A stretch of 64,000 nt of DNA from Minisyncoccia bacterium (GCA_050008535.1 JBEKML010000001.1:66246-130245); one strand, 5' to 3'; positions 60 through 18,019 are shown, counted from the first letter of the stretch. Numbers and translations are program-made. Notes: generated from the letters alone by a model not told the origin.

Positions 60-368
60 ATGCTTTTCATCGTGTGGGGGAACCGGGAGCCGCGCACGCT
101 TCGTTTCGCTTTGACGGAAAACGATATCGAAGTGGAAAAAGGGAAAGCGTACCCCCTCAAAGATTTTGAAAACGTGGGAATTGACCCTTTGGGCAACGGC
201 TGGGCCGAACTCGTTTTTACCTTTCGCGCGAAGCTCAAAATCCCTTTCAAAATACTGTTTCCGGAAGATCGCCTTACTGAATTGCGTAATCATCTGAAAA
301 CCGTACTAAAAGAAGTTCCCTACGAACCCACGCTCATTGATTCTATTGAAAAGCTGCTTCGGTTCTAG
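60..368 (+). CDS. hypothetical protein (102 aa)
   Basis: Intact ORF just upstream of the tRNA-Arg gene. No recognisable motif. Confidence 0.35.
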   Translation: MLFIVWGNREPRTLRFALTENDIEVEKGKAYPLKDFENVGIDPLGNGWAELVFTFRAKLKIPFKILFPEDRLTELRNHLKTVLKEVPYEPTLIDSIEKLLRF

Positions 369-1933
369 TATCGTAAAAGCGTTGGCCCTCGTCGTTCAAC
401 GGACAGGACGCAAGATTGCGGATCTTGTAATCGAGGTTCGATTCCTCGCGGGGGCACCATAGTAGAATTTTCAGGTGAGATTAGCTGTTTAAGCTCGTAA
501 ATATCGGCAGTTTTGGTGGTTCCAAATGTCGAATAGTCGTAAGAAACGCCGTTCGGGAAAATCATCTCTTGAAACTTAATCTTATCCGACAGTTTTACCT
601 CGTACCAAAGCTTGTAAGCGTTGGCCATAAAATACAGGCAGTAGTTCACGCTGGTCTCTACGTCAAATTCCTCGATCTGTAATTCATTCCTGCTTAGTTT
701 GAGCAGGGTCACTTTTTCTTTGATCCGATTCAACTCCTCTTTGGCGGTATCGGCATCGAAGACCCCTTGTTTGGTCAGGTCGACCACTTTCACTTTTTCC
801 TCTTCGACTTTCTGGATATTCCGATCAATCGTGGCGATGTCGGTATTGAGCTCCTCGTGCTTATTTTGCCAGTAATCGATAACTGTCGCTCGGAACATGG
901 CCATTTCTTCTTTCTTGGGAGCCAGTCTTTGCAGGAACTGCATGAACTCTCCCTCGAAGATTTCCTTCTTGACGCTTCTCTTGTGGCACTTGGCGCAGTG
1001 GTAATAGGCGTAGCGTCCGCCGTGGCCCCGAGACCAGCTTCCGGTAAACTTGCCACCGCAGACACACCGGGCAGTCACTCTTAACGGAAAATCTGGATTG
1101 AGCATTCTTTTCGGATGGTTAGTAAGCCGGCCGGTTTTATTGCGAATATAAAACTGGACCCGTTCAAAGAGTTCGGTGGTGATGATTGGCTCAAATGCAC
1201 CCTGCATCTCTTGACCTTTCAGCATAAAAACTCCGGTGTAAATCCGGCTCCGGAGCATTTTGTGGATGACCTGTTGTCTGATTTTGTTTCCTTTGGACGT
1301 AGTAAATCCGATACTGTTAGCCATTCGAGTTATCTCGGATTCTTTATAAATCCCCTTGGCATATTCCTCAAAAAGTTTTTTGACGACAGGTGCTCGCTCC
1401 GGATCGGGTACAATCGTTTTATGTCCTCCTGGCTTCATAACGTTGCTGTAGCCAATTGGAGCGACCCACGAAATCTCCCCCTTGCTCACACGCTTTCGTA
1501 TTCCGTCTTTGGTGCGTTCTGCTTTGGCATCGTTATCAAATTGGGCGAATGAGGCCATGACGTTTTCCAGAAGCTTGCTCGTGGAGTTATCGCCTCCGAT
1601 CGGTTCGGTCACGGAATAAATACGGACGCCGTATTGACTGAGTAGTGATCGGATCGCCACATGGTCGGCCATGTTTCTGGCAATGCGGTCGATCTTATAA
1701 ATCAGGACCGCATCTACTTTTTCCTTATGTGTCCGGCAGTATTCCAAGAGCCGAGCTAGGGCTTTGCGGTTCATGGTCTTGGCCGACTCACCGGCATCGA
1801 CGAATGGTTCGCAGGCCAGCTCAAACTTGTGATCGACGATCCATTTTCGGGCGAGTTCGACTTGCGACTCCAAGCTAAAGTTGTGCTTGGCCTGCTCCTC
1901 GGTCGAGACACGAGCATAAATTACTGCTCGCAT
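365..1933 (-). CDS. large serine recombinase (resolvase/invertase N-domain, recombinase domain, zinc ribbon, coiled coil)
   Basis: The N-terminus MRAVIYARVSTEEQ carries the catalytic Ser motif typical of serine recombinases. The zinc ribbon reads CVCGG...YYHCAKCHKR. The likely start is the internal Met at 1933; the 28 codons upstream of it are probably not translated. The ORF stays open through the antisense of the tRNA-Arg gene and stops at 365. Confidence 0.85.
   Translation of the reverse strand: MRAVIYARVSTEEQAKHNFSLESQVELARKWIVDHKFELACEPFVDAGESAKTMNRKALARLLEYCRTHKEKVDAVLIYKIDRIARNMADHVAIRSLLSQYGVRIYSVTEPIGGDNSTSKLLENVMASFAQFDNDAKAERTKDGIRKRVSKGEISWVAPIGYSNVMKPGGHKTIVPDPERAPVVKKLFEEYAKGIYKESEITRMANSIGFTTSKGNKIRQQVIHKMLRSRIYTGVFMLKGQEMQGAFEPIITTELFERVQFYIRNKTGRLTNHPKRMLNPDFPLRVTARCVCGGKFTGSWSRGHGGRYAYYHCAKCHKRSVKKEIFEGEFMQFLQRLAPKKEEMAMFRATVIDYWQNKHEELNTDIATIDRNIQKVEEEKVKVVDLTKQGVFDADTAKEELNRIKEKVTLLKLSRNELQIEEFDVETSVNYCLYFMANAYKLWYEVKLSDKIKFQEMIFPNGVSYDYSTFGTTKTADIYELKQLISPENSTMVPPRGIEPRLQDPQSCVLSVERRGPTLLRY
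385..459 (+). tRNA. tRNA-Arg (anticodon read as GCG; encoded CCA)
   Basis: Hand-folded cloverleaf. Acceptor stem gccctcg/cgggggc with one G-U pair. Anticodon stem caaga/tcttg with 7-nt loop ttGCGga. T-arm cgagg-TTCGATT-cctcg. Discriminator a, then cca. Confidence 0.6.
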
Positions 1934-2212
1934 TTTTGTGTTTTGAATTTGGTCTGTCATAGTCATATTCGTATAGAAATAGCTTACAATGACAACATAC
2001 GCTAACCCTTGGCACAAGCCAAGCTGGGGCTAAGTGGATATGTTAAAATCGTTGCCCGATACGTAATCTGCATGGAAACCACGACTAAAACTGGCCTATG
2101 CTTGGCATCATGCCAAACATCGAACATGAAAGCGGCCATCTGGTAGTACTGATTTCGCATCAGCTCAATTTCTTTGTCGCTTTTACTCTCGTATGATTTT
2201 GGCAATAATTTT

Positions 2213-2800
2213 CTACACGCTTTGATCGTTAGCATAATCTTGTTTCTTAAATCCACCCTTGGGCGGTCTGCCGGTTGCCAGCCAATGATCGGCTTTCTCG
2301 GTAGATTCCGATTTGTATTGGTCACGGGACAACGCCAGCCGGATTTCATATGGCACCATAAGCCAGCGATCCTCGACTGACAGTTGCTCGAGCTCCTCGG
2401 GGTTAACATGGATGGTCTCTTTCGGCTTGCCCTCGACCCGATCCAGTATCTCCCGGATGGCGGACATTTTGACCGAGTCGTTCGCGCTTCCCATTAAGGC
2501 AACGAGCATCTCGTTGGCCAGCCGAAAATTCTGCTCTCTGATTCTCGCTCCAGCTCGCCGGACAATGTTCATGGTTTCGATATGGATTTGATCCATCTCG
2601 TCCTCGTATATGCGGTAAGTTTCGTACAAAGTACCGGCTTCTTTGAACCAATCTTTAACGCTCTGCTCGGTGAATTTGGCTTTTCTACTTTTTGGGGCTT
2701 TGCGGTTTAGATCATCGGCAATACTTTCGTACGAATGGCCTTTATATTTCAGCTCTAATGCCCGTTTGTGGTATTCGGATAGATGTTTGATTTTGGGCAT
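2213..2800 (-). CDS. terminase small subunit-like protein (N-terminal HTH, C-terminal LDRVEGKPK motif)
   Basis: The N-terminus has a sigma-r4/HTH-like segment. The C-terminal ILDRVEGKPKE resembles the conserved LDRG(W/Y)GKP signature of Terminase_2-type small terminase subunits. No large terminase gene is nearby. Confidence 0.4.
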   Translation of the reverse strand: MPKIKHLSEYHKRALELKYKGHSYESIADDLNRKAPKSRKAKFTEQSVKDWFKEAGTLYETYRIYEDEMDQIHIETMNIVRRAGARIREQNFRLANEMLVALMGSANDSVKMSAIREILDRVEGKPKETIHVNPEELEQLSVEDRWLMVPYEIRLALSRDQYKSESTEKADHWLATGRPPKGGFKKQDYANDQSV

Positions 2801-2811
2801 AAAAAGTAGAG

Positions 2812-3024
2812 TTAAGTAGAACTTTTCGGACCTCGTTTTTCTTCGACAATGATCTGTTTCGGCTTTCCATAAACTCGGTCAAGAATGTAGATAGCCGCTT
2901 CCAGCTTCACCATGTCGTCCTTGCTCTTGAGAAGCGAGACCAAAACCTCGGCCGCTTTCACGACATTTTTATGGAACATATTTATGGCGGTTTCCATTTC
3001 AGGCGTCAGATGTTGTTTGTTCAT
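2812..3024 (-). CDS. terminase small subunit-like paralog fragment (70 aa)
   Basis: It shares the ILDRVYGKPKQ motif and flanking helices with the adjacent 195-aa protein. It may be a duplication or a degenerate copy. Confidence 0.3.
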   Translation of the reverse strand: MNKQHLTPEMETAINMFHKNVVKAAEVLVSLLKSKDDMVKLEAAIYILDRVYGKPKQIIVEEKRGPKSST

Positions 3025-3036
3025 GTTTTTTATTGG

Positions 3037-3543
3037 TTAATCTTTATAAGGCGTCCTCACACTCATCCGATCCAGCAACTGCTCACGGGTATCCATCAGT
3101 GCATCGAATGATTCCTCGGATTTCTGCTCGGCATAGGCTCGTTTATCTTCGAGTTCGTCCAATGCTTTCTTTTTGCGCTGGAAGTCTTCGTAGGCTTTAA
3201 GGTCGGGACCGACAGCCCAACCACGATCCGGATGCTCTTTTTTTACATAGCGACGGGATGTTGCTTTTATCTCCAATAGATACTGCACAAGTCCGGCATC
3301 AGTGAGTCCTGTGATATCGTTGTAGACTCGTCTTGGATTTATGCTTTCGGGAAATTGGCGACTGCCCATCGTGAAAGCTCGCATGACTTCTTTCGGTTCG
3401 CCGTAAACCCAGAGAGGATACTTGAGCGGTGCGGTTTTTAACTGCTCGAGCATTACTTCAAAATCTTTAACGGTTTGCTTATCTTCCGGATTGCTTAGGT
3501 CGTATTCCGCTTTTATATTTTCTTTTGTCTCGGTGTATTTCAT
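3037..3543 (-). CDS. hypothetical protein (168 aa)
   Basis: Intact ORF. Its start overlaps the stop of the upstream gene by 4 nt (ATGA coupling). Confidence 0.5.
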   Translation of the reverse strand: MKYTETKENIKAEYDLSNPEDKQTVKDFEVMLEQLKTAPLKYPLWVYGEPKEVMRAFTMGSRQFPESINPRRVYNDITGLTDAGLVQYLLEIKATSRRYVKKEHPDRGWAVGPDLKAYEDFQRKKKALDELEDKRAYAEQKSEESFDALMDTREQLLDRMSVRTPYKD

Positions 3544-4331
3544 ACGATGAATTTAAATAACGTCTCCAGCGTGTATCGCTTGAGCCATCCTTGCTTTACG
3601 GCTTCTTGGATTTTCTTGAATCCTTGAATGATTTTTTCGTCACCAAATGGCTCTAAGTTTTTAGCTGTCCTCACGTTGCGTTTTATAAATGCCTCCCATT
3701 GGGCTTTGGTCTGGAGATCCGGCTCGATCGTATCCGCCCAGTTGCCGATGATCTGGATATGCCGGTGGTTGCTCTTTCCACACCAGTCCACGAATTCTTT
3801 GAGAGTCATGGGGACATCAGTTATCGGCGTTTCGGTTTCTTCTTTTTCTTTCTTCTTCAAGGGTTCTTCTTTGTGCCCAATGGTTGAACGCTTCGAGTTC
3901 ACCAGATGAACGCTTTCGTTCACTGGTTGAAGGCTTTGTGGCAAGCGTTCACCATTTGAACGCTTTGATTTTTCCTCGTAATGCCGGACATTGAGCGACC
4001 ACAAATCTACGATCCGGTATTCGACCGTCTGCTGGTTCGTGGCCCCGGTGGCTTTATAACCAACGACTTCTATCCAGCCACGCTCGACCAGCTTTTTCTG
4101 GTATTTAGCGACCGTATTCCTTGAGCAACCGAGTCGTCCGGCGATTTCCATTGCTGACATCCAGCAGGTGCCCTCCTCGCCAGCCACACGCTTCATGTAT
4201 AAATAAATGGCCTGCTCGTAAACCGTCGAATGGTTGACGATGTAGTTCGGGATGATCGTGAAGTATTTCCGGTCACCGCTCTTGTCTATGATTTTGAATG
4301 GGTCGTTACGCATAAAATTAGTCGTGTCCAT
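3540..4331 (-). CDS. winged-helix DNA-binding protein, possible replication initiator of the island
   Basis: The N-terminal ~90 aa (YEQAIYLYM...MSAMEIAGRLGCSRNTVAKYQKKLVERGWIEV) look like a wHTH of phage or plasmid replication-initiator type. The protein has a long basic/acidic linker. Confidence 0.4.
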   Translation of the reverse strand: MDTTNFMRNDPFKIIDKSGDRKYFTIIPNYIVNHSTVYEQAIYLYMKRVAGEEGTCWMSAMEIAGRLGCSRNTVAKYQKKLVERGWIEVVGYKATGATNQQTVEYRIVDLWSLNVRHYEEKSKRSNGERLPQSLQPVNESVHLVNSKRSTIGHKEEPLKKKEKEETETPITDVPMTLKEFVDWCGKSNHRHIQIIGNWADTIEPDLQTKAQWEAFIKRNVRTAKNLEPFGDEKIIQGFKKIQEAVKQGWLKRYTLETLFKFIV

Positions 4332-4632
4332 AAATTCTCACTTTGGCAAGTTTGAGTTGGTTGAAAAAATCTTGAGGTTCGACCACAAGTTCTCGCTTCC
4401 AGTATTTGCTTACCAAATCGTCTAATTGGTCGCTCCTCCGGAAAGCGAAGAAGACCTTGCGCGGATTTGCACGGTCGCAGACCTCGAGCGAGTCGGGCAT
4501 AAATAGCAAAAGAACCGCTACCAATGCTAAATCGGCGGTTGTATAAAATTCGGAATTGTCGCTTGTCATAGTCATACTGTTTCCTCGCATTTGTTCCGGG
4601 ACCTCGCCCAAAACAAAACATACTCCCAGCAT
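4318..4632 (-). CDS. hypothetical protein
   Basis: ORF with several candidate starts. It overlaps the downstream gene by 14 nt. Confidence 0.3.
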   Translation of the reverse strand: MLGVCFVLGEVPEQMRGNSMTMTSDNSEFYTTADLALVAVLLLFMPDSLEVCDRANPRKVFFAFRRSDQLDDLVSKYWKRELVVEPQDFFNQLKLAKVRIYGHD

Positions 4633-4675
4633 AGAGGAGTACGTTCATTCAATATTCAGTTCTGAATTTGGAAAG

Positions 4676-5212
4676 CTACGGCACAAATCGCCAACCCTCT
4701 TTTTTGTGATTAAGAATCACGTCTTTTCCGAAGCAGGGCTTGAGCAATCCGTGCAGTTCGCTCACGTATTTGGCGATGGTCGAGAATCTGGTTCTCTCAC
4801 GCCGTTCGGCCCGGATGATTTCCTCCCGTATTTCATCGCATAAGACCAGCTGGTTCGGCCGGGACATAAATATCCGGCATAGGTCGTTGAGCTGATCACG
4901 CATAGGGATCACTGATCCTCTGAAGCGGATCGTGCCGTCGGAATATGTCGCAAGGTCGCCGATTTCTATTTCAGGCTTTATTTTTTGAGTAGATAGACTG
5001 CATAGCACAGCCGTTGTTTTCTTTAATCTCAAATTACTAACCCGTCGATCACCATCTAGTTCGCTGACCTCCTGACGCAACATTTTTACCTCACAGATCA
5101 GCCGGTACAAAAGAACCCCGATTGGAATTTCGACAATCAAAAAGCGATAGGTTATTTCAATGCTTACTGCCGAATATTGCGCTGTCATTTTCATAGTCAT
5201 CTTTGCTAACAC
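4676..5212 (-). CDS. hypothetical protein (178 aa)
   Basis: Intact ORF in a lower-GC stretch. Confidence 0.4.
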   Translation of the reverse strand: MLAKMTMKMTAQYSAVSIEITYRFLIVEIPIGVLLYRLICEVKMLRQEVSELDGDRRVSNLRLKKTTAVLCSLSTQKIKPEIEIGDLATYSDGTIRFRGSVIPMRDQLNDLCRIFMSRPNQLVLCDEIREEIIRAERRERTRFSTIAKYVSELHGLLKPCFGKDVILNHKKEGWRFVP

Positions 5213-5377
5213 CTAAAACGAAACGAGCTCGTAACCCAACTATCAAATCGATAGTGGATTACGAGCTCGTGAGCAAGGAATGCCGTTCAGGTCGCCCCTT
5301 GAGGCGAAATTATTTAATTGTTGGATTTATTATAACACTTTTCAAAAATTCTCTTAAAAAATTCACTGTGTATAAAT

Positions 5378-6778
5378 TTACCGTCTTGGCTTTGAAAAAT
5401 TTCTGATTGCACCCTCCATAACACACTTCATGATCATTCCGTTGATGGGCTCGCTGTAACTCCGGCTACCTTCTGTAAGTTGCATATGGCCGATGTTCTC
5501 ATTCCAAACAAAATATTGTGTTTTCTCTCTGCCTTCTTTGTGCAAAGCAAGCCCGTCAGTAAAAGGGTCAACTTGCACAATTTTCCTAAGGTCGAGGTTG
5601 ATGGTTTTCATATTTCCCGAAAAGACAAAACGTTCATTGGTGATTGTAAGAATTCCTCGATCTATGTCCCGTATTTCTTGGTGGGACTCGCTTGTCGAAC
5701 CAAACCTACCCATTCTAAAATAGACACCTTTTGCGACGCGGAAGCTTGGACCGGCATATCCACCACTGCTTTTTCGAACAGCCCTGGGTTCTTTCAGCGT
5801 TACTCCGGGAAGAGCAAAAAGGAGTTCCTCGCCAGATTTCATAATAACGGGCGTATCGACTCCTTTGAAGCTAATCTTGATTGCACCGGCACTCAACTTT
5901 TCCAGCCACTGCTCTATATCAGCTTTTCTTTGTTTCTCGTCCGACATTCCGCCATTCCCGATATTGACCCATTCACGAGGAGATAGTGTTTGGCGAGAAT
6001 ACTCTTGCCAAACCTTATTGGATTGATCGTTAACTTTTACAAACTTATATCCGGTTTCGTTTTTCCTGAAAGTCGCACCGCATTTATCGCACATAATACC
6101 TTCACGAGAAAACAAGCCAAAGAATACCTTTTCTGTTTTTAATGACATTTCTCCAACGTGACATGCAACACATCTTTTTGCTTCTGATAAATCTTGGTCT
6201 TTAGATAAAGCTGGATTTATTTGTTTATTTTGAGCGATACTCGTTGGCTTGGCGGTAACTGTCACACCGGTCGGCTCAATGTCTGATTTTAATATATAGC
6301 TTAAATCGCTGTCAGAACGGATCACGCTTGCAAGCGCCTCTGCAAAATAAACCGGCGGTGTTGTGTATCCGTGAATCCAGAGTCCCTCGGGTTCATATTT
6401 TTCTTTTGCCAGCTTTAACTCCTCGAGCATTTCTTTATACTCCTGCTCTCCGAGTACGGCCTTCATTTTCTTGCCAAAAGAATTTCCCAAAACCTTGAAG
6501 TCAGCGTCTTTAACCTCTTTTGCTAATTCATCCGAGCATTCTTTCGTCCAGTACTTGGCGACTATTTTCGCTTCAGGCCAGTCAAAATAGTTTTCGGGCA
6601 TTCCCGAAAACGGATTTGGCATAGATATGTTTAAACTTACTTTTTCGTCACCATCCCCAAACTCGGTGGTTTCGTTAAAACCATCATCGAGAATTTGTGG
6701 GTGGAATTTTAGATTTTTTATGGATAAAGCCATACTCTTGTTACTGAATAGATGCCGTCCAATTACCATCGGCGTCAA
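5378..6778 (-). CDS. hypothetical Cys4 zinc-ribbon protein (466 aa)
   Basis: Long intact ORF with a CVACH...CDKC zinc-ribbon pair in the middle. It overlaps the upstream gene by 38 nt, which suggests co-transcription. Confidence 0.55.
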   Translation of the reverse strand: MTPMVIGRHLFSNKSMALSIKNLKFHPQILDDGFNETTEFGDGDEKVSLNISMPNPFSGMPENYFDWPEAKIVAKYWTKECSDELAKEVKDADFKVLGNSFGKKMKAVLGEQEYKEMLEELKLAKEKYEPEGLWIHGYTTPPVYFAEALASVIRSDSDLSYILKSDIEPTGVTVTAKPTSIAQNKQINPALSKDQDLSEAKRCVACHVGEMSLKTEKVFFGLFSREGIMCDKCGATFRKNETGYKFVKVNDQSNKVWQEYSRQTLSPREWVNIGNGGMSDEKQRKADIEQWLEKLSAGAIKISFKGVDTPVIMKSGEELLFALPGVTLKEPRAVRKSSGGYAGPSFRVAKGVYFRMGRFGSTSESHQEIRDIDRGILTITNERFVFSGNMKTINLDLRKIVQVDPFTDGLALHKEGREKTQYFVWNENIGHMQLTEGSRSYSEPINGMIMKCVMEGAIRNFSKPRR

Positions 6779-8135
6779 TATTCAGAAGATAGATTCCGCT
6801 GTCATCTATGCGTACAGCTTTTGAACCGTTGTACGATCCGATGACGTTAACGAGTCCCTCAACCGTATTGCCGTTCACATCAAGCAAGTGAACAATAAAA
6901 TTGCTACTGCCGTCATGCGTAAATGCAAATGTGTGAAGACCTTGGGGGAGGCTGAAGAACGAAGTTGCTTGAGGCCCCCTACCATTAAGGCTAGAAGGAG
7001 ACTGGGCGCTGGTCGGTCGGGGTTGGGTTATGGTTATCGTCCACGGACCGTCCGAATCAACGTCAAACAGATAACTGCCTGCGTTTGAAATGTGTTCGGC
7101 TTTCGAGCCGCTAAAGTTTCCTATTTCGTTAGCGAGGCCATCAACAGTGTTTCCGTTACTATCCAAGAGGTGCACAATAAAATTGCTTTGGCCGGTATTT
7201 TGCATCGTAAAAATCGATAATCCTTGATCCAAATTGAATCTCTGGCTTGCTTGCTGGCCGTTACCGGAAATTGTTATCGGTGCAGGTGCTGGCTTAATTA
7301 CTGACACTGAGTTACTGCATGATTGGTTAACTGATTGGCTACCCGACACAACGTTCACTTGAGCGTTTTTGGTGCCGGCGCTCGAGTAAGATTTTGTGAC
7401 AGATTGAGTATTGCCTGACAAGCTCTCCGATCCAGACCACGAGAAACTATAAGATCCTGTACCACCGGACACTTGTGCAGTCCAAACAGCTGTCTGTCCG
7501 GCAGTGAGAGACGTTTGCGAAACTGAGCAAGAAACCGACAGAGCCGGTGCTGAAGGTGTAGAAGGTTGTGTTGCTTGCTGAGACTGCGATTGATTTGCAC
7601 TCGTTGGTTTCGGTGTTGTTGCTTTTGGCGCAGGATTATTTTGCGTTACAGTGTCGCCTGTACCTTTTTCAATAACGCAAGCAGTCATGCTTGGAATCGT
7701 GATCTGGAAATGCGCTTGCGATTCGTATGTTTTCGAGCCGGTCAATTGGCCATAAGCCGTAACCACGTCATCATCGACAGCATCTGTATGTCCCTGATAT
7801 TCGACGTAAACGACGTCGCTCGAACTCCATCCATACGATTCTTTTGTCACGGCAAGGCGAGCAATGCCGTAGCCATTCGATTCCTGAATTTGCAGAACTT
7901 GGCCTGTGAATTTGGCTATCTTGCCATTAAATGACCCAGGGTCTTTATTGAGTTCCTTAAAATCAACTGCCATTGCCTGATTTTTAAGAGAGGCTATATC
8001 GCTACAAAGTGATGGCTGGTTATCAGATGCGAGCTGGGCAGGACTATTATTGCTTGAGTCACTGCTACTGATAATGACGATTAATATTATAAAAACAACG
8101 ATACCGCCCACGATCCATACTGTTTTATTTTTCAT
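6741..8135 (-). CDS. membrane-anchored exported protein with a DUF4352-like domain, a PKD-like Ser/Thr-rich segment and two internal ~55-aa repeats
   Basis: N-terminal TM anchor (IVGGIVVFIILIVII). The segment GGTGSYSFSWSGSESLSG is PKD-like. The tandem repeats begin FIVHLLDSNGNTVDGLANEIGNFSGSK and FIVHLLDVNGNTVEGLVNVIGSYNGSK. Confidence 0.6.
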   Translation of the reverse strand: MKNKTVWIVGGIVVFIILIVIISSSDSSNNSPAQLASDNQPSLCSDIASLKNQAMAVDFKELNKDPGSFNGKIAKFTGQVLQIQESNGYGIARLAVTKESYGWSSSDVVYVEYQGHTDAVDDDVVTAYGQLTGSKTYESQAHFQITIPSMTACVIEKGTGDTVTQNNPAPKATTPKPTSANQSQSQQATQPSTPSAPALSVSCSVSQTSLTAGQTAVWTAQVSGGTGSYSFSWSGSESLSGNTQSVTKSYSSAGTKNAQVNVVSGSQSVNQSCSNSVSVIKPAPAPITISGNGQQASQRFNLDQGLSIFTMQNTGQSNFIVHLLDSNGNTVDGLANEIGNFSGSKAEHISNAGSYLFDVDSDGPWTITITQPRPTSAQSPSSLNGRGPQATSFFSLPQGLHTFAFTHDGSSNFIVHLLDVNGNTVEGLVNVIGSYNGSKAVRIDDSGIYLLNIDADGNWTASIQ

Positions 8136-8138
8136 GGC

Positions 8139-8360
8139 CTACTTAATAAAATATTTGATATCTTTATTGTAAATTTTTGCAAAGGCTTGAAGCTCGACGA
8201 CATCGACCCTTTGCTGTCCCGACTCAACATTGGAAATGTGAGACTGCGGACGCTTTATTTTTTTCGCCACTTCCGCTTGCGTTAAACCTGCTTCCTCGCG
8301 AGCCTTTCGCAATTTCTCCACGAAATAGGCGTATTCCTTTGTTCTGATAGACCTAGTCAT
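8139..8360 (-). CDS. XRE-family (Cro/CI-type) HTH transcriptional regulator
   Basis: AGLTQAEVAKKIKRPQSHISNVESGQQRVDVVEL is a classic HTH_3 sequence. Its stop lies 3 nt upstream of the start of the downstream gene. Confidence 0.8.
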   Translation of the reverse strand: MTRSIRTKEYAYFVEKLRKAREEAGLTQAEVAKKIKRPQSHISNVESGQQRVDVVELQAFAKIYNKDIKYFIK

Positions 8361-8421
8361 ATAGTACTATGGTCTATCCAAACATTCAATATCCAAAGTT
8401 TGGATATTACAAAACGGCCAT

Positions 8422-8733
8422 TTACGGCACCAGTTTAAACTTTCGCATTTCCTCTGTTGCCATTTCCATGTCATCCAGCACTTTCTGGTAGATCGCCTTG
8501 GTTCTTGCTGATTTTGGATTATTCTCGGCAAATTTTATGTCGTCATCATCCACAAAGCCGGCCAGTGAGATATAAGCACCGGCCAAAAGTCTGATTCGTT
8601 CTTTGATCGCTTGTTTGATTTTAGCTTTAGGTTCCGGAAGCGAGGATAGCGGATTGAATGATCCGCGTTGGTGTGGCAATCGTACATTTTTTGCGTCCCG
8701 GAGGACGGCTTCGATGTCCTCGTTCATAGGCAA
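8422..8733 (-). CDS. hypothetical protein (103 aa), first gene of the XRE operon
   Basis: Intact ORF upstream of the XRE gene. A toxin-like role is possible but no motif supports it. Confidence 0.4.
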   Translation of the reverse strand: MPMNEDIEAVLRDAKNVRLPHQRGSFNPLSSLPEPKAKIKQAIKERIRLLAGAYISLAGFVDDDDIKFAENNPKSARTKAIYQKVLDDMEMATEEMRKFKLVP

Positions 8734-8888
8734 GCAACAACATATGCTTGCCCTCGGAACAAGTCCAGCGGTTTATAATCACTTCCTTAAGTTGGCCCCT
8801 TGACCTTGTTTTATTGTGGGTATAGTATGTATTTGTAAAGGGCGTATCACCCTTGTAAGGGAACATTAAATGTGCTAATAATAAACTT

Positions 8889-9119
8889 ATGGATAAAATC
8901 AATAAAAAAGAAACTCCTCGGGATAGATTTAAAAGACTGGCTACTCTCAGGACAAACGCTGTCTTAAAAAGGCTTAAGGTGCTGGGAAACTGCTCGAACC
9001 GACAGGCATACGAATATAGCGAAGATGAAGTGGATAAAATATTTTCGGAAGTCGAACGGAAATTGAAAGAGGTTAAGGCCAAATTCCACTTCCCTAAAAA
9101 TCGAGAGTTCCACTTATAA
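8889..9119 (+). CDS. small basic hypothetical protein (76 aa)
   Basis: It ends 14 nt before the start of the GHKL ATPase gene and is likely co-transcribed with it. Confidence 0.4.
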   Translation: MDKINKKETPRDRFKRLATLRTNAVLKRLKVLGNCSNRQAYEYSEDEVDKIFSEVERKLKEVKAKFHFPKNREFHL

Positions 9120-9133
9120 GCCCCTGAATAACA

Positions 9134-11665
9134 ATGAAAATGACTATGATAAATGACAAAAAATTGAATAAAGAGATCCTGCTCGCACTGCTCTCAGCGA
9201 CGTCGTCCGAAGAGATTTCTAATTTTATAAAGACAAATAAATTTTTTAATGCTGAGAATTGTTCGTGGAAGCCATACGGCGGACAAGAGACAAATGCCAA
9301 AAACGTAGAGGGGCAGATGAGAAGCTCGAGCAATGCGCTCGTAGAAAAAATAACGAATTCCACCGATGCGCTTTTAATGCGGAAGTGCTACGAAGTCGAG
9401 GGGCTGAAGCCGGAGAGCGGTAACTCCAAACTGCCTAAGACCTTATCAGAGGCGATCGCGAAATACTTCGGGACCGAGGAGGAGATAAACAAGAAACGTA
9501 GCGAATGGGCGAAGAAAAATCTGGTTTTACTGGCCGAGGGTGACAGGAAGAAACCGACGATTACGATCATTGATCGTGGAGAGGGGCAGTTCCCCAATAG
9601 AATTCAGGCGACGATTGTCGGACTGAGCGAGAGCATAAAAGAAAAAATAAATTTCGTTTTCGGTAAATACCATCAAGGCGGATCGGCCGCGATCCGTTTT
9701 TGCGGTAGCAAGGCGAACTGCTATCAGCTGGTCTTGTCGAGGAGGGCTGAAAGCATTGCCCAGAGGGAGGGTGAAACTAATGACTGGGGCTGGACGCTGG
9801 TGAGGCGCAATTTCAAGAACAGGATCACTTACTATGAATTTTGCACGGACATTAACGGCAACACTTTCTGCTTTGATTATGACAAGCCGTTAAAAATTCA
9901 AAACCTAGACATTGATTTCATCGATGGATGCCTTATCCGGTTATACGATTATTTCTTGGAAAATCCATCAAACATAACGTTCGGCTTTAATTCGCTGGCG
10001 TTCGATATCGACCAAAAACTCCAACGGTCACCGTTGCCTCTTTATCTCCAAGATAATCGAGGGTGGAAGGGTGATACCAAATATACGATCGCAGGCTTTT
10101 TACGAAGGGTGGAGGACAACAAAAATGTCATCAACGACGATATCACCCTGCAAGCAGGACTGGGAGAAATCGGAACGAGGAGTATTCGGTGTATCCGCCT
10201 CAAGCATATAAGCGATGTGGACGGCGTTAAGTCTTATAAGCAACAGAGGGACAAAATATTCTACGTCGAGAATGGATTAGCTCTCGGTTTTGAAACGGAA
10301 TCTTTTCTGAGGACAGACTGTCAGCTTCCGGCCCTTGCGCCATATCTGATCTGTTATGTTGATATGTCCGACATTCCAGTGGAGCTGGCGAATATATTCC
10401 ATGCCGGCCGGGAGGAATTCGCTCGGACGGATGACTATCATCTTTTGAAGGAACGCTTGCGAAAGTTTTTTGAAAATGAGATTTTTGAAAAGTGGGATAA
10501 GGAGTATCAGGAAAAGAGCTTGGCCAGTGCGAATGAGGACAATAAAGAGCTTGATAAGCTGATTGAGCGAGCCATTGTCGATGATCCGGAATTGAAGGAC
10601 TTGCTCGGCATTGGTGAAGAGATAAAGATACCGAAAGGCAAAGAAGAGGATAAAGAGCCTTACGTCGGAGAGGAAAATCCGAAAAAGTTTGAATACGTTG
10701 GGGAACAGCCCAAAGAAGTCGATAAGGGTTCCTATGCTCTTGTTTCCTTCCGGACCGAGGCGGAAGATAAGCTTTTGACCAGAAAGAAGAATCGCTACTA
10801 TATCGAATGGTCTAAAGGCTCGAAGGTCTTTGACGTGGTAATACGAGGGATGAATAAGGGCGTCATATCGCTTCGGGTTGATTGCCGGGAAAATGCGACA
10901 GTCGGAGACGAGGACAAGATAACTTTTACCTTGCTGGACTCCGAGAAAAATAAAAAGTTCGAAGAGAATATAACTTTCAAAGTAACCGAGACACCGCCTT
11001 ATATTGGCTCATATTTCCCGACCTATTTTGAACCGCAAAAGGACGTTCTGAAAATTTCTCCCAAGGCGACTAAAAAATTCACCTTTGCCACCGATGTCGC
11101 AAACGACTATTTCACGAGAGAGAAAGACGCCGGAGTCATTGAGTTCGGGGAACGGGATGATCTGCAATTAAAAAAGTTCAGATTGAATGATGGAATGTTG
11201 GAGGTGAGCTTCCACGCCACGACCGAAAAGCTGGGTAAGAAACCCGATATTAAAATTGCCATTAATGGGAGTATAGATCACCGTTTCGAGTTTGTTATTC
11301 CTTTGGAAATCGTACCGCCAGAGGAAAGCTCTAAACTGAATGAGCCCAAAAGGAACCCTGTCTACGAGAGGGACTGGCCGACTTATGGCTGGAGCGAGCA
11401 CGATGTGGCAAGCGTGGACTCTTCAAGGACGCAGGGACTGATAGTAAACCTCAACGTTGATTCCAAGCCGTTGAAAGAACTGAATAAGATGGTCGGCATC
11501 GACAAGATCGAAAGTGCAAAAAATAAATATCTCGCTGATACTTACATCTACTCTCTTTATCTGTATTTTGAATTGAAAAACGACCCCGATAAGGATCGTA
11601 TGCTAAGCTCTGCAATGCGCGCGATCGGAAAAGCACTGCCCGGTATGATCCGGAAGATTGTTTAG
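9134..11665 (+). CDS. GHKL/Bergerat-fold ATPase (MORC-like), 843 aa, with a large uncharacterised C-terminal region
   Basis: N-box ALVEKITNSTDALLMRK. G1 box TITIIDRGEGQ. G2 box FGKYHQGGSAAIRF. The remaining ~650 aa have no recognisable motifs. The stop TAG at 11663-11665 overlaps the stop of the convergent methyltransferase gene. Confidence 0.6.
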   Translation: MKMTMINDKKLNKEILLALLSATSSEEISNFIKTNKFFNAENCSWKPYGGQETNAKNVEGQMRSSSNALVEKITNSTDALLMRKCYEVEGLKPESGNSKLPKTLSEAIAKYFGTEEEINKKRSEWAKKNLVLLAEGDRKKPTITIIDRGEGQFPNRIQATIVGLSESIKEKINFVFGKYHQGGSAAIRFCGSKANCYQLVLSRRAESIAQREGETNDWGWTLVRRNFKNRITYYEFCTDINGNTFCFDYDKPLKIQNLDIDFIDGCLIRLYDYFLENPSNITFGFNSLAFDIDQKLQRSPLPLYLQDNRGWKGDTKYTIAGFLRRVEDNKNVINDDITLQAGLGEIGTRSIRCIRLKHISDVDGVKSYKQQRDKIFYVENGLALGFETESFLRTDCQLPALAPYLICYVDMSDIPVELANIFHAGREEFARTDDYHLLKERLRKFFENEIFEKWDKEYQEKSLASANEDNKELDKLIERAIVDDPELKDLLGIGEEIKIPKGKEEDKEPYVGEENPKKFEYVGEQPKEVDKGSYALVSFRTEAEDKLLTRKKNRYYIEWSKGSKVFDVVIRGMNKGVISLRVDCRENATVGDEDKITFTLLDSEKNKKFEENITFKVTETPPYIGSYFPTYFEPQKDVLKISPKATKKFTFATDVANDYFTREKDAGVIEFGERDDLQLKKFRLNDGMLEVSFHATTEKLGKKPDIKIAINGSIDHRFEFVIPLEIVPPEESSKLNEPKRNPVYERDWPTYGWSEHDVASVDSSRTQGLIVNLNVDSKPLKELNKMVGIDKIESAKNKYLADTYIYSLYLYFELKNDPDKDRMLSSAMRAIGKALPGMIRKIV

Positions 11666-12978
11666 ACTTTCTCCATTACCAGAACGTACTCGTACTCATA
11701 GGCCCTCGTTCTTGAAGGGTTAGCCATGCCTGTAAACTTACCGCTCTCGATATCGCGCCATGGGGTTATCATCTTATTCGGGATTTCTCGCTTGATGAAT
11801 TTCACTTCCTTAAATCCGGCTACCTGCATCTGTTCGGCCGCTACTTGAGCGTTTAGGATTTCTACTCCCCTGAGATTGGTGTTGCCGATAATCATGCAGG
11901 CCTTACCTCCAGTTTTAAGTATCCGGTGCATTTCGGCGAACACTTTTTTCATGTCTAAAAAGTAATTAGCGACATCTACAGCCAAAGGTCTTTCAATTTG
12001 GATCAGGGCGTTTACTATCTGTTCGGCACTCTCACTGTCAAAGTCGCCTGTTTTTTCGGCTTTCGAGCTCGTGCCGATAAAGTTGCGACGAAAATCTATA
12101 AAGCCCTTGCTGAAGTGATGCCATTTCTTGAAGTGCTTCGGATCATCGCCAAACCACAGTAGCGACAACTGGTGCAGATCGGCGTATTCATAAGATGTCA
12201 CATACGGAGGTGATGTTACGATAAGGTCAACGTCACCGTCCTTAATCGGCCATGCCTTTGTCGAGTCTCGGCGGTACATCGTGGCTGGCACTTTCAAGTA
12301 TCCGGATTGTTTTAATTCGTTATAAAATCGCTCATTCTTTTTTATCATCGAGTCGAGGTGTCGAAGGAATGACTCTTTGACCGGCGGAATTACCTTGTCT
12401 TTGTCTATCGTTGGTTTAATGCTTTTCATCAGCCACCGTGAGCAGTTTTTCAGGTTATGGGAAAATGCACACAGGAAAAATCGGCGGACGTTATGGTTCT
12501 CTATTTTTTTAATAGCAAAATAAATCCTGTCCAACTCCAAAACTGTCGACTCATCAAACCAGTAAGCAATACGAGGGTGATGTTCTCGTTGGACCGGCGA
12601 TGTGTTTTCGTAATGTTGTAAAAATTTCTCCCGGTAATTGACGAGGGATTTCGGCCTGATAGCCGTCGTCTTGGTTTGGGTGATCAGCTTTGCTACCGGA
12701 TTGATGTCAAAGCCGATGCTCTTGTGGCCTAAAAGCTTTGCCTCAACCAATGTCGTTCCACATCCTCCGAATGGATCACAAACTGTTTGGGTATTGTTGG
12801 GTGCGTAATCCTCGATCAGCTTTTTAACGATCTGCGGAATAAATTTTGCAGGGTAACGATGGTAGTCGTGGGTGAAAGCGGTCGTTTGCGATCTACCGGC
12901 ATCACGAAAAGACCAATCTTCACTGGGTTGGATGGTTCTAAACTGTTTTTGTATTGTAGTTGCGATAGCTTCCGGCAT
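11662..12978 (-). CDS. DNA methyltransferase, amino-MTase (N6-adenine or N4-cytosine)
   Basis: AdoMet motif I VCDPFGGCGTTLVEA near the N-terminus. Catalytic motif IV IVTSPPYVTSYEY after a ~150-aa putative target-recognition region. Total length 438 aa. Confidence 0.85.
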   Translation of the reverse strand: MPEAIATTIQKQFRTIQPSEDWSFRDAGRSQTTAFTHDYHRYPAKFIPQIVKKLIEDYAPNNTQTVCDPFGGCGTTLVEAKLLGHKSIGFDINPVAKLITQTKTTAIRPKSLVNYREKFLQHYENTSPVQREHHPRIAYWFDESTVLELDRIYFAIKKIENHNVRRFFLCAFSHNLKNCSRWLMKSIKPTIDKDKVIPPVKESFLRHLDSMIKKNERFYNELKQSGYLKVPATMYRRDSTKAWPIKDGDVDLIVTSPPYVTSYEYADLHQLSLLWFGDDPKHFKKWHHFSKGFIDFRRNFIGTSSKAEKTGDFDSESAEQIVNALIQIERPLAVDVANYFLDMKKVFAEMHRILKTGGKACMIIGNTNLRGVEILNAQVAAEQMQVAGFKEVKFIKREIPNKMITPWRDIESGKFTGMANPSRTRAYEYEYVLVMEKV

Positions 12979-13399
12979 ATGTTGTCACTGGTATTATACC
13001 GCTTTATAAGATTTCTATCAAAAAAATTTTGCACTTTTTGATATTCCGGGCAGTCATATTTGCTTAAGTTAAGCAAATCGTTTTAGGCTTTCAATTTTGG
13101 TCAAACCGGCTGGTCATGCTCGCGAATGGTGTCAATGGTGTACTCTGGCCACAAAGCTCGCTACAGGGGCAAACACGTGGCAGAAATCGGGGCGTTTAAT
13201 CGTGAGCTGATTCGGTCTGGAATAATCTCGATTTTTCTGATAAAATTCCAGTTGTAAAAGGTGGGTTCCATGTCTTTAGGCCAAAACGGTTGAAAAGTCT
13301 GGAATTATGCCCGCCTCCGGGAGGACGAGCTGTAAAAGGTCTTTAATCTCTCGGATATTACGGAGAATTGAGTTCCAATTCAATTCCCTCAAGGGCACA

Positions 13400-13465
13400 G
13401 GCAAAGAAAAAGGGTTTCAGATCGAGTACTAAGAAGGGCTCTCTCTGAAACCCTTTTTCTTTGCC
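13400..13465. repeat. hairpin repeat copy A (core in reverse orientation at 13424-13441)
   Basis: The 22-bp perfect inverted arms ggcaaagaaaaagggtttcaga/tctgaaaccctttttctttgcc flank tc-GAGTACTAAGAAGGGCTC-tc. Confidence 0.8.
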
Positions 13466-13669
13466 TTTTGGCACTCACGGGGAATTGAACGAGGGGGGAG
13501 GGGGCAGTCTGACCCCTCCGTGTAGGAGGGTCGCGCGCTTCGCGCGACAGTGCGCGCACCCTAGGTGTCGCAAGCGCAGGCCGGTCTTACCCGGCCGAGC
13601 AGTGAGATCCCTCGCAAAGCCAATAAGCTTAATGAGCGGGAAATAGGCGTGATTTGTTATAATAAAAAA

Positions 13670-13933
13670 ATGAAATCAAGAATCGGGTTGATCCTTGTCG
13701 TTTTATATATTTTGTTCGTAGGCTATCTTTGGTTTGCTGAATTGTCTTGCACTGGTTGGGGGTGTGGCTACTCGCTGATACTGGCGATAATGCCCTGGCC
13801 GCTTGTTCTGGAAGGCACAGCTCAGTTTTCAATCCCGTTATTTATTATTTTGTTTTTATTGAATGCCACTATTTTATATTTCATCGGACTGGGACTTTCT
13901 AAAATCTTCCGTCAAGACCGCGGAGTTTTGTAA
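13670..13933 (+). CDS. small membrane hypothetical protein
   Basis: The hydrophobic ORF is called from the internal ATG at 13670. The ORF track begins at a GTG at 13565. This call is weak. Confidence 0.25.
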   Translation: MKSRIGLILVVLYILFVGYLWFAELSCTGWGCGYSLILAIMPWPLVLEGTAQFSIPLFIILFLLNATILYFIGLGLSKIFRQDRGVL

Positions 13934-14031
13934 AGAATCTCAAAACGCTTCCGAAGAATGTTTGTGGGGTCTCACTCATAAAGGTCTGAGGCCTTGGAAG
14001 GGCGCAGCTTCATTGGTGGTATAATTAAACT

Positions 14032-14580
14032 ATGAAAAAAATAATGGTTAGCTTGCTGTTTTTGCTGCCAGCGGTCGTTTTTCTGCAGGGAGCTCGGGCG
14101 GCCAAAACAATGCCGTCGTCAACCTCCGGTGTTGTTTCTGATCAGAAGGCCGCGGCGACGGGAAGCGTGATCGTGGTTTCTCCTCGAATCACGTCATTTC
14201 TTGAAAATCTTGCAAAAACCAATCCGTCCCAATCGGTTCAAGTTATTATTGAAGTATCCAACGCGCAACGTCAGGACGTCCTCCAGCTTGCGGAGTCTCT
14301 TGGGGGTAAACTTACCACCGATAACCCCCTGTATAATAATCCTCGTTTGCCATTATTTATTACCATTCCGGCAGGCAAGCTTCTTGATCTTGTGGCCTCG
14401 AAATATGACTTCGCCATTTCCGAGAATGGAATTGGTTCCGTCGCACAGGCAACGTCTGCGGAAAATCAATACCAGACAACGCCAGAAAAGGGCTGGAGCG
14501 GAACCGCAGGAATCGCCTCCGCCGTTGGAGCGATTGTTTTGATTTATCTGATATATAGGGTTGCAAACAAAAAACGTTAA
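14032..14580 (+). CDS. exported protein with C-terminal TM anchor and basic tail
   Basis: Signal peptide MKKIMVSLLFLLPAVVFLQGARA. C-terminal GAIVLIYLIYRVANKKR. Confidence 0.55.
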   Translation: MKKIMVSLLFLLPAVVFLQGARAAKTMPSSTSGVVSDQKAAATGSVIVVSPRITSFLENLAKTNPSQSVQVIIEVSNAQRQDVLQLAESLGGKLTTDNPLYNNPRLPLFITIPAGKLLDLVASKYDFAISENGIGSVAQATSAENQYQTTPEKGWSGTAGIASAVGAIVLIYLIYRVANKKR

Positions 14581-14589
14581 GCGGCGCCG

Positions 14590-15348
14590 CTACTTTGCGC
14601 TCAATAAACCGTCGATCACCGACTGGAAATTTGCATACGGTTGGGCGCCCATAATTTGCCTCCCGTTGATGAAGAATACCGGGGTGGAATTTACTCCCGC
14701 AGCGGACGCGCTTGCCTTTTCCTGGGCGACCTGGCTCGCATATTTATTGGCATCAATACAAGTCGTGAATGCCGGAATGTCCAGGCCGAGCTGCTGGGCA
14801 AGTTTAAGGAAAAGCGTCCGATTCAAACTGCCGTCGTTTTCGCTGCCGCCCTTCTGTTCATCCTGAACTTTCGCCTGATATAAAGCACCGTGATAAGCCC
14901 ATGCTTGATTCTGATCCGCGGCGCACTCCGCTGCCTCTGTCGCAGCCGTTGATTCGGGGCCTAAGAACGGAAAGCTTCTGAAGACCATTTTCATCTTCCC
15001 AGAATCCACGTATTTCTTGATAAGAAGCGGCTGGGTTTGTGAAAAATACTGCACACAAAACGGACATTGGTAATCGCCGTACTCAATAAAGGTAATTGGA
15101 GCGTTGGCGTTCCCAAGAACGGCATCGCGCGGGCTTAAAGCCATGATGTTTACCGTACTTGTCGGAGCTGCAGCCTGCGGCTGCTGCGCGGCGGGCGAAG
15201 GCGTTACTGTTCCTCCTTTATAAAATACCGTGAAGAGGATCGACCCTGAGATAAGGACTGCGGCAACAAGGATGCTGATCGGCAAAAACCGAGATTCGAT
15301 TGGTTGGTGATTTTGTTCCATGCGTTCCATGATATCATGCCGACACAT
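14590..15348 (-). CDS. DsbA-like thiol:disulfide oxidoreductase (thioredoxin fold, membrane-anchored)
   Basis: N-terminal TM segment. CPFC active site within YGDYQCPFCVQY. The exact start codon is uncertain. Confidence 0.75.
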   Translation of the reverse strand: MCRHDIMERMEQNHQPIESRFLPISILVAAVLISGSILFTVFYKGGTVTPSPAAQQPQAAAPTSTVNIMALSPRDAVLGNANAPITFIEYGDYQCPFCVQYFSQTQPLLIKKYVDSGKMKMVFRSFPFLGPESTAATEAAECAADQNQAWAYHGALYQAKVQDEQKGGSENDGSLNRTLFLKLAQQLGLDIPAFTTCIDANKYASQVAQEKASASAAGVNSTPVFFINGRQIMGAQPYANFQSVIDGLLSAK

Positions 15349-15413
15349 TGCGTCAAACGATTTACGAGGATATTGAAAATGGGAAGAAGTGGCGTATAAT
15401 AGGAAGCGTTATC

Positions 15414-15485
15414 GCGGGTATCGTATAGCGGCTATTATGCGACCTTGCCAAGGTCGAGATACGGGTTCGACTCCCGTTACCCGCT
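15414..15485 (+). tRNA. tRNA-Gly (GCC)
   Basis: Acceptor stem gcgggta/tacccgc. Anticodon stem cgacc/ggtcg with loop ttGCCaa. T-arm acggg-TTCGACT-cccgt. Confidence 0.7.
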
Positions 15486-16075: not shown

Positions 16076-16129
16076 TTTTATTGAATTGAGAGGCCCGCAC
16101 CGTAATAAGATACGGGCCTCGATTTGTAG

Positions 16130-17134: not shown

Positions 17135-17231
17135 GGTTTTCAAAGAACTCCTACTCTCCCGCCCGGAAATTGAAACGGCCCTTCCGGGAAGGGCTTGATC
17201 GGCAAGTGCGCGCGGCACAACCAAACCCTTC

Positions 17232-17528: not shown

Positions 17529-17668
17529 ACGGGCACTTTAGCAAAGTAAAGTGGCAAAGTCAAGCCCGGGGCCGCAGCGATCTGTTTCGTCCTTTTGGAC
17601 TCGTCGGGCGAGATACGCATCTCACGACAGAGAGGGTTTTAGAGGTCCCTCAAACTCGCCGGGGTGGT

Positions 17669-17935: not shown

Positions 17936-18019
17936 CGCAATTCTCCTCTCTTCTCGCTGGCTGTGTTTTATCACATATGAGCTCATGTTGTCAATTGTTT
18001 TAAAATTAATCGCCCATAG

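Follow-up and report, generated by a model that had tools for sequence, protein, structure and literature searches.

A tRNA-Arg(GCG) gene in the genome of a Minisyncoccia bacterium, a member of the Patescibacteria or candidate phyla radiation (CPR), is followed by a 12,941-base pair (bp) run of genes that we analysed within a 64,000-nucleotide (nt) stretch of DNA (GCA_050008535.1, JBEKML010000001.1:66246-130245; hereafter the window, to which all positions refer). This run, at 458-13398, contains the gene for a large serine integrase (int), whose open reading frame (ORF) overlaps the tRNA, two proteins resembling small terminase subunits (TerS), a replication initiator-like protein (Rep), accessory genes and a DNA methyltransferase cassette (Table 1). 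The p76 and p843 genes (8889-11665) lie on the plus strand and all others on the minus strand, in keeping with an earlier, sequence-only reading of this DNA that had described nearly all of them as minus-strand. That reading had proposed a tRNA-Arg-associated integrative element built on a large serine recombinase; its ends, its core and the excised-form attachment site (attP) found in a relative, contig L012, confirm this, and establish it as a mobile integrative element placed by the large serine integrase.

In the tRNA-Arg gene, the host or the core accounts for the sequence as far as 457, and the CA of its CCA (458-459) comes from the element. The hexamer GGGCAC, which spans the acceptor 3′ strand, discriminator and first C of the tRNA, is present at both ends and is the sole identity between the left (attL) and right (attR) attachment sites, giving the short att sites of large serine integrases. 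A repeat search with a seed of 10 found no displaced tRNA fragment as a direct repeat, because serine integrases typically share only such a short core. The sequence-only reading had correctly put the attachment site inside the tRNA and the right end within 12979-13560. Its left end, at 365, moves to the core at 452-457, and the hairpin (its copy A) and the GC-rich palindromic block that it had noted within this interval both lie outside the element, in host DNA. The hairpin is the displaced terminator of the tRNA-Arg gene; comparable hairpins lie 3′ of other tRNA genes in this genome and of the tRNA-Arg gene of contig L017. The block of short palindromes (13467-13640) folds barely more stably than shuffled sequences (z −2.1) and has no match in Rfam. 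GC content is 0.42-0.49 over the element and 0.52-0.61 beyond 16 kb, the difference noticed earlier, but the low zone persists to about 16 kb, ~2.6 kb past the end of the element.

Contig L012 carries an integrase that is 92% identical to that of the window and is not followed by a tRNA. The two sequences are collinear through ...AATTCTACT ATG GTG CCC and diverge afterwards, and the next ~350 nt of L012 align to window positions 13398-13052 on the reverse strand (69% identity, E = 1e-27). L012 thus joins the integrase end to a homologue of the far end of the element and therefore holds an unrecombined attP, which could derive from either a circle or a tandem array. Homology to the L012 attP runs on through the attL core, placing the crossover within the core. 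Consistent with this, an attP rebuilt from the window's own ends matches that of L012 along both arms. The predicted attP of the window element is …TTCCCTCAAGGGCAC joined to CATAGTAGAATT…, and the predicted empty site (attB) is …CGCGGGGGCAC joined to AGGCAAAG…, also written as ...GGGGGCAC joined to AGGCAAAG. The P-arm of attP (GAGTTCCAATTCAATTCCCTCAAGGGCAC) bears a loose likeness to a tRNA T-arm and acceptor end. Dyad-symmetry scores of the reconstructed attP and attB were uninformative, as was a search for the 8-mer GGCACCAT, which matched at chance level.

The integrase matches the Pfam families Resolvase (PF00239, 2.3e-34) and Recombinase (PF07508, 1.1e-14) and the PHROG integrase family phrog_95 (1.4e-88), and its R8 and catalytic S10 (YARVS) are invariant in 11 homologues. 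The catalytic-serine N-terminal domain named in the sequence-only reading is therefore well supported; the zinc ribbon that it also named (Zn_ribbon_recom, PF13408) gives only a weak match (0.0025; 18.6 bits against a Pfam cutoff of 25.3), is called in most homologues, and has conserved Cys motifs (alignment A1). The nearest phage integrases are 24-29% identical. The enzyme is like the integrases of phiC31, Bxb1, A118 and TP901-1 in its Resolvase and Recombinase domains and putative zinc ribbon and in using short att sites without long direct repeats. Unlike the phiC31/Bxb1 type, it targets tRNA 3′ ends, has an apparent GGCAC core and has its attP within the integrase ORF.

This last arrangement and the position of the crossover, at the very 3′ terminus of the tRNA, had both been missed in the earlier reading. 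The integrase ORF runs through the antisense of the tRNA, so that antisense tRNA and host DNA supply its final 28 codons and stop (365-451), and the core is read as a Val-Pro codon pair (GTG CCC) in a conserved C-terminal ...NSTMVP motif. Joining 13398 to 458 restores an ORF of 532 amino acids (aa), which is also the length of the L012 integrase, and the two end at the same stop. These alignments place attP inside the integrase ORF and show that integration replaces the tail, stranding its piece at 13276-13398: the last 38 codons are swapped for 28 antisense-tRNA codons (PRGIEPRLQ...), converting the 532-aa enzyme into one of 522 aa. The 'G(I/F/L)EP' in the tails of integrated forms arises because the T-arm is read backwards. 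The SSV1-type integrases of archaea and the integration-dependent immunity systems of the mycobacteriophages BPs and Brujita also have attP in coding sequence, so that integration alters a protein, and they use tyrosine recombinases. In SSV1 the affected gene is int, the target is a tRNA gene and int is split into two inactive parts. Unlike in SSV1, no catalytic or DNA-binding domain of this serine integrase is lost, and only the 38-residue tail is exchanged. Among the papers listed in our literature searches, none reported a serine integrase with an ORF spanning attP at a tRNA 3′ end, an absence from a text search that is weak evidence.

The tail swap may be a neutral by-product of the overlap with attP and of an ORF that happens to be open across the tRNA, in an element that otherwise lives as we propose below, and we place the chance of this only slightly short of even. 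Between the window and L012 the tail differs by 15 non-synonymous and 7 synonymous codon changes, so that it is less constrained than the body of the enzyme. Part of the tail-coding DNA doubles as the P-arm of attP, and constraint on that DNA can account for part of the conservation of the tail; moreover, the integrated-form tails of relatives vary freely in length and sequence. By contrast, the restored 38-residue tail (LRELNWNSILRNIREIKDLLQLVLPEAGIIPDFSTVLA) and that of L012 match in length and in the position of the stop and give a gapless alignment with 58% identity, against only 62% for the non-coding DNA just past the tail, and the overlap of int with a tRNA is retained even in an integrase that is only 35% identical (L027). 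The swap may have a regulatory role.

The use of tRNA genes extends beyond this locus. Integrases 63-86% identical to that of the window likewise lie on tRNA-Phe(GAA) (L009), tRNA-Arg(TCT) (L010) and tRNA-Leu(TAG) (L011), and the L027 integrase lies on tRNA-Ala(CGC), where the int/tRNA overlap alone is seen. Judged by these junctions, tRNA targeting is family-wide, at least five tRNAs being used by close relatives. The occupied tRNA junctions in the window and in L009-L011 read GGCAC followed by CATAGTAGA(A/T)TT, and where the window holds these tRNAs in unoccupied form, they end in GCAC or GCGC followed by unrelated sequence, with no encoded CCA. Because an encoded CCA is found only in element-occupied tRNAs, the element donates the CA of the CCA; on this comparison, integration leaves the tRNA intact, adds CA and shifts the terminator hairpin 12.9 kb away. 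The excised-form tail and the P-arm motif were not found at the far ends of L009, L010, L011 or L027 in the sequence available, the ends lying beyond it or having diverged. With an attP inside int and a clade that moves among at least five tRNAs with a GGCAC core, the family represents a natural experiment in retargeting, and perhaps also in directionality control, that is relevant to the genome-engineering uses of serine integrases. Native tRNA genes elsewhere in the window (at 15414, 44475, 56301, 56456, 56579 and 56960) end in ...AC, or in one case ...TC, and have no full CCA.

The locus was compared with 13 related loci, found through the neighbouring PilM gene in metagenome-assembled genomes (MAGs) of Minisyncoccia, Paceibacterota and Patescibacteria, of which those complete as a single chromosome measure about 0.83-0.9 Mb. 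In 11 of the 13, the p155 left flank is followed by tRNA-Arg(GCG) without the element, and none of the 13 has any of its genes there. In most, a tRNA-Gly(GCC) gene and a sigma-factor gene follow 0.05 to a few kb further on, and in most of the empty-site genomes the tRNA ends in ...GGGCAC and a non-CCA trailer, in agreement with the predicted attB. The empty-site comparison suggested in the sequence-only reading thus yields a presence/absence polymorphism at tRNA-Arg. It is seen between species and not within one, because the scanned collections gave no empty site or circle junction from the same species. The idea that the tRNA is borne by the element was rejected, as relatives have the same p155-tRNA-Arg junction without it. 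The locus in the host has type IV pilus/competence-like genes (PilM, T2SSE and ComF-like) as neighbours.

Table 1 Features of the integrative element and its borders in the window (HTH, helix-turn-helix)
Feature	Position	Strand	Remarks
Large serine integrase, integrated form, 522 aa	365-1933	-	Pfam Resolvase, Recombinase; phrog_95
tRNA-Arg(GCG), integration target	385-459	+	ARAGORN; Rfam 57.8 bits
attL core GGGCAC	452-457		tRNA positions about 69-74; same 6-mer at attR; flanks switch there
p77	2002-2235	-	Directly upstream of int; tblastn 55-88% identity, same position in L009-L012
Long TerS-like protein, 195 aa	2213-2800	-	Predicted N-terminal HTH and long helices; ILDRVEGKPK motif
Short TerS-like paralogue, 70 aa	2812-3024	-	Oligomerisation/ILDRVYGKPK region only; conserved in L010, L027, L029
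p168, core protein	3037-3543	-	89% identical in L010; no family match
Replication initiator-like winged-helix protein, 263 aa	3540-4331	-	HTH_36 1e-11; DnaD_N 5e-4
Iteron array inside rep gene	3878-3966		Four copies of 16-20 nt, spacing 21-29 nt (repeat search)
DUF5659 protein, core	4318-4632	-	Pfam 7.4e-7; in L009, L010, L027, L029
p178, first gene of core operon	4676-5212	-	58% identical in L010; weak Trans_reg_C match, E 0.037
Promoter-like site and 16-nt inverted repeat	5357-5329; 5223-5238/5255-5270	-	Upstream of core operon
p466 (zinc-ribbon-like), p464, XRE, p103	5378-8733	-	Accessory; no homologue in L009-L012, L027, L029
XRE protein	8139-8360	-	HTH_3 7.5e-13
Cassette: p76 (+), 843-aa GHKL ATPase p843 (+), convergent N4/N6 DNA methyltransferase (-)	8889-12978
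Detached int 3′ end (core codons, 38 codons, stop) and attP P-arm	13276-13398	-	Rejoined only when excised
attR core GGGCAC	13393-13398		Directly left of hairpin copy A
Hairpin copy A and U-run, host	13399-13466	+	Folds at −45.4 kcal/mol, z −9.15

A core block beside the integrase recurs in six related contigs (L009, L010, L011, L027, L029 and L030), not every gene being present in every member. It consists of a p178-like protein, the DUF5659 protein, Rep, sometimes p168, the short and long TerS-like proteins and p77; as far as these contigs extend, the layout is modular, with a conserved core and variable cargo. From its position, p77 is a candidate recombination directionality factor (RDF). 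No family match was found for p77, p168, p466, p103 or p76 in Pfam, NCBIfam or PADLOC. The winged-helix protein that had been put forward as a possible replication initiator resembles PHROG replication initiation, lambda O-like and DnaD-like families (2e-13 to 1e-8; best 2.4e-13), in line with its HTH_36 domain. The iteron array within its gene is the probable origin. The rep genes of L009, L010 and L027 also have mid-gene arrays, with a repeat sequence that differs in each, which is the pattern that iterons co-evolving with their initiator would give. The lambda origin lies inside gene O, which the intragenic iterons recall. The first gene of the core operon, p178, possibly encodes a winged-helix regulator, and the site upstream of the operon (10/12 in a consensus scan, with an extended TG) and the inverted repeat (94% complementary) would act as a putative promoter and regulatory repeat. 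As had been stated earlier, no ORF of the element matches capsid, portal, tail or large-terminase families, and virion genes were absent from the window element and from the recovered parts of six relatives.

The two small proteins with an LDRVxGKPK motif are paralogues, as the sequence-only reading had described them (51% identity over 41 residues; BLASTP E = 3e-10), and profile searches support the TerS resemblance that it had proposed. The 70-aa protein matches phrog_2538 ('terminase small subunit') at 4.8e-8, the L009 orthologue of the long form matches the same family over nearly its full length (3.7e-10) and the L011 orthologue matches three terS PHROGs. When a 26-member family profile was searched against all PDB sequences, the top two matches were the TerS proteins of Pseudomonas phages NV1 (7JOQ, 0.0029) and PaP3 (6W7T, 0.0043), with alignments that cover the ILDR motif region. 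Among 50,697 phage genomes, the best tblastn match of the L009 protein was gp01 of Enterococcus phage IME197 (38% identity, 1e-5), which sits directly before the large terminase (TerL) and portal genes. An AlphaFold2 (AF2) model of the 195-aa protein (mean predicted local distance difference test score (pLDDT) 70) comprises a three-helix N-terminal HTH bundle and a 46-residue helix. With moderate confidence, we regard the family as homologues of small terminases, and propose that the pair functions as TerS. The condition that the sequence-only reading had set for its own rejection, a lack of significant terminase similarity together with a lack of polymorphism at the tRNA, thus does not hold. 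No TerL was found in the element or its relatives, as would be expected of a satellite, so that position cannot confirm TerS function. The family has 289 homologues, and all 120 of those listed are unnamed or 'hypothetical'.

Cargo differs between members. In the window, it comprises p466, p464, the XRE protein and p103, together with the cassette of p76, p843 and the methyltransferase. The XRE regulator noted earlier is present; its gene is on the cargo side, travelling with variable genes outside the conserved core of the family. The methyltransferase matches PF01555 (6e-21) and the PADLOC model MTase_II (3.6e-55). Its neighbour p843 has no sequence match in Pfam, PHROG, PADLOC or PDB (phmmer), and its GHKL fold came to light only through its predicted structure (AF2 pLDDT 82): Foldseek retrieved the Topo VI-B, GyrB and Hsp90 ATPase-transducer folds at ~2e-9, followed by C-terminal immunoglobulin-like domains, and the p843 family has invariant GHKL motifs (ExxxNxxDA, DxGEGQ and GxYxQGG). 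The cassette may be an unclassified restriction–modification (R-M)-like system, for which a role in defence can be suggested. The cargo of the relatives consists of copper/metal resistance genes (L010), a type I R-M system and SLFN_AlbA_2 (L011), a type I R-M system with DUF6119 and an AAA_14 ATPase (L027), an AAA_14 ATPase (L009), and an IS256-like transposase with metabolic genes (L012).

Some further observations concern these cargo genes. The three-gene cassette (proteins of 54-76 aa and 760-845 aa, with a convergent methyltransferase) recurs in unrelated contexts, mostly in Patescibacteria (L031-L034), and is therefore a mobile R-M-like cassette. The product of p464 (6741-8135) has an N-terminal hydrophobic segment, a phrog_26645 domain (1.4e-22; a family of unknown function) and two repeated C-terminal domains (…NFIVHLLD.NGNTV.GL.N.IG…), and is a cargo protein that is probably secreted or exposed at the surface. 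In L012, the IS256-like (Transposase_mut) gene lies just past the attP region, at 2245-3429 and onward, and is followed by metabolic-looking genes for a DHO dehydrogenase, tRNA-synt_1b, Glycos_transf_3, an alcohol dehydrogenase and a HAD/tRNA-synt_1b fusion, an unusual cargo for an element of this kind.

We reasoned that this could be a site-specific, autonomously replicating integrative element with a lifestyle like that of the phage-inducible chromosomal islands (PICIs), and we give this reading, in which a satellite lifestyle is plausible, an even chance. As the element has two small-terminase homologues and neither a large terminase nor virion genes, capture of the packaging motor and capsids of a helper phage would be its most likely route of spread. 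Judged against criteria taken from general knowledge and from the description in 10.1101/2020.12.28.424599, it resembles PICIs, both the Staphylococcus aureus pathogenicity islands (SaPIs) and those of Gram-negative bacteria, in being ~13 kb in size (12,941 bp between cores, in the PICI range of about 10-15 kb) and site-specific, with its own integrase, a candidate replication initiator and probable origin of its own, a TerS homologue and accessory or defence cargo, and in lacking large-terminase, capsid, tail and lysis genes. It differs from them in having a serine integrase where PICIs have a tyrosine integrase, in its CPR host, and in a Rep that is an initiator-like winged-helix protein with iterons and no primase or helicase, unlike the PICI module. 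The PICI-like label of the sequence-only reading therefore holds for gene content but not for the divergent Stl-type repressor switch that PICIs have beside int: here int ends a one-directional operon, and the sole XRE gene is 6 kb from int and absent from related elements. We do not class the element as a PICI, although it may work like one.

Other known systems share parts of this organization. The PLE satellites of Vibrio cholerae are phage satellites with a large serine recombinase, and show that a satellite can rely on such an enzyme. PLE targets Vibrio cholerae repeats and not tRNA genes, and obtains its excision factor from the helper phage ICP1. The Prochlorococcus tycheposons also target tRNAs, and one integration and replication backbone is common to those that carry cargo and those that are PICI-like, with terS or capsid genes (10.1101/2020.12.28.424599). 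The element resembles them functionally, and in this respect only, in being tRNA-targeted and in combining a replication module with a slot for modular cargo. According to the same study, 910 of 937 tycheposons use tyrosine recombinases, and a minority carry large serine recombinases; tycheposons leave partial tRNA repeats, and their replication genes encode primases, helicases and polymerases (10.1101/2020.12.28.424599). PICI-like tycheposons in that set never carry cargo, whereas TerS and cargo coexist here.

Under the satellite reading, the 532-aa integrase, made from the circle, would integrate the element at a tRNA ending in GGCAC. Excision would need a directionality factor, for which p77 is the positional candidate, and the excised circle would replicate from the iterons inside the rep gene. 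The TerS pair would then steer the large terminase of a helper phage onto element DNA, resulting in satellite-type transfer, and the integrated element would offer its host a swappable cargo slot, filled here by the R-M-like GHKL-ATPase/methyltransferase cassette. Replication, the identity of p77 as the RDF, TerS function and dependence on a helper are thus all proposed steps.

Several observations weigh against this model. Neither a helper phage nor induction or packaging is known. The TerS homology is modest overall: on its own, the window's 195-aa protein matches phrog_2538 at E = 0.021, and Foldseek against PDB returns mostly TerS structures (G20c, Sf6, NV1, P74-26 and E217), all of them non-significant (E > 0.1, TM 0.2-0.45). 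The TerS-like gene is always adjacent to int (L009, L010, L011, L027, L029 and L030), which also fits a role in recombination. In IMG/VR, no relatives of the 195-aa protein, Rep or the TerS-like alignment were found. The element contains no detectable primase or helicase domain, and the PICI-type switch at int is missing. The exact attB junction gave 0 matches in GTDB genomes and JGI metagenomes, and the exact attP junction, which the sequence-only reading had suggested seeking in metagenomes, gave 0 matches in JGI metagenomes (the ENA/Logan source samples lay outside these scans). All 6-7 contigs bearing the element's genes are in the integrated state, and the L012 junction could stem from a tandem array and not a free circle. 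The best IMG/VR match to the integrase alignment was dropped; it is 40% identical and comes from an unrelated contig in which no tRNA was detected.

The same invariable adjacency of TerS-like gene and integrase, together with the lack of viral relatives, keeps alive a phage-independent account, in which the element is a plasmid-like integrative island for cargo or defence that excises, uses its iterons to replicate as a circle and spreads by natural transformation or some other means, as has been put forward for cargo-carrying tycheposons. The TerS-like proteins would then be recombination or regulation factors, for example an RDF or an architectural protein; that serine-integrase RDFs can be recruited from unrelated phage proteins has been argued (10.1101/2024.08.21.608926). 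The cargo, mostly R-M and other adaptive genes, and the competence-like genes flanking the host locus are consistent with such a lifestyle. Against it stand the homology specifically to proteins at the TerS position in phages, the retention of two TerS paralogues across the family and the presence of p77, a separate small conserved gene that already holds the usual RDF position. We consider this account possible but short of probable. That the element is an immobile prophage remnant that has lost its structural genes is very improbable, despite the phage-type functions of its integrase, Rep, TerS-like and XRE proteins and the integrated form of every contig seen, because the same compact core, with intact ORFs and different cargo, recurs at five tRNAs with no virion genes in the available sequence, because a relative keeps an intact attP and a full-length 532-aa integrase, and because the integrase tail left behind at attR can still be read and aligned as an open frame.

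Returning to the satellite reading, a stronger form of it would make this the first phage-satellite family in CPR/Patescibacteria, with two integrase isoforms (532 aa when excised, 522 aa when integrated) whose tails set stability or directionality, in a clade that is naturally retargetable among GGCAC tRNA ends. We think it rather unlikely that all of this holds. A literature search found no paper describing a phage satellite in Patescibacteria, although absence from a text search is weak evidence. If the isoform swap is real, it would be the serine-integrase counterpart of integration-dependent genetic switches, and if the satellite reading is true, the family provides a handle for finding the unknown helper phages of Minisyncoccia. 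CPR bacteria make up a large uncultured share of bacterial diversity, with tiny genomes and with mobile elements and phages that are barely charted. As a delimited, widespread family that shuttles R-M, copper-resistance and other cargo among tRNAs, the elements described here therefore offer a tangible means by which genes, including those for defence, can pass between these organisms.

Two further features of the window lie in host DNA. The interval from the element to the sigma-factor gene (13400-18150) encodes p122, p182, a DsbA-like protein, tRNA-Gly, a HAD hydrolase, p334, a TrpR-like protein and p133. Eight proteins tested from this interval had no counterpart at the locus in the 13 related MAGs, its GC content is 0.44-0.50 from 13400 to about 16 kb, and the HAD gene directly adjoins the tRNA-Gly 3′ end; the interval may represent another islet, older than the element, within a tRNA-Arg/tRNA-Gly hotspot that is hypervariable. 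The terminator-like hairpins form a family with five copies in the window (13399-13466, 18020-18090, 25320-25385, 56170-56235 and 56385-56450) against 0 expected, several of them 3′ of tRNA genes, and with a copy in a related MAG (L017, about 8615-8700). They have long perfect stems of about 22-26 bp, which differ in each copy, and an identical 18-nt loop, GAGCCCTTCT(T/G)AGTACTC. That the loop is constant although the stems vary points to a terminator or protein-binding element specific to this lineage.

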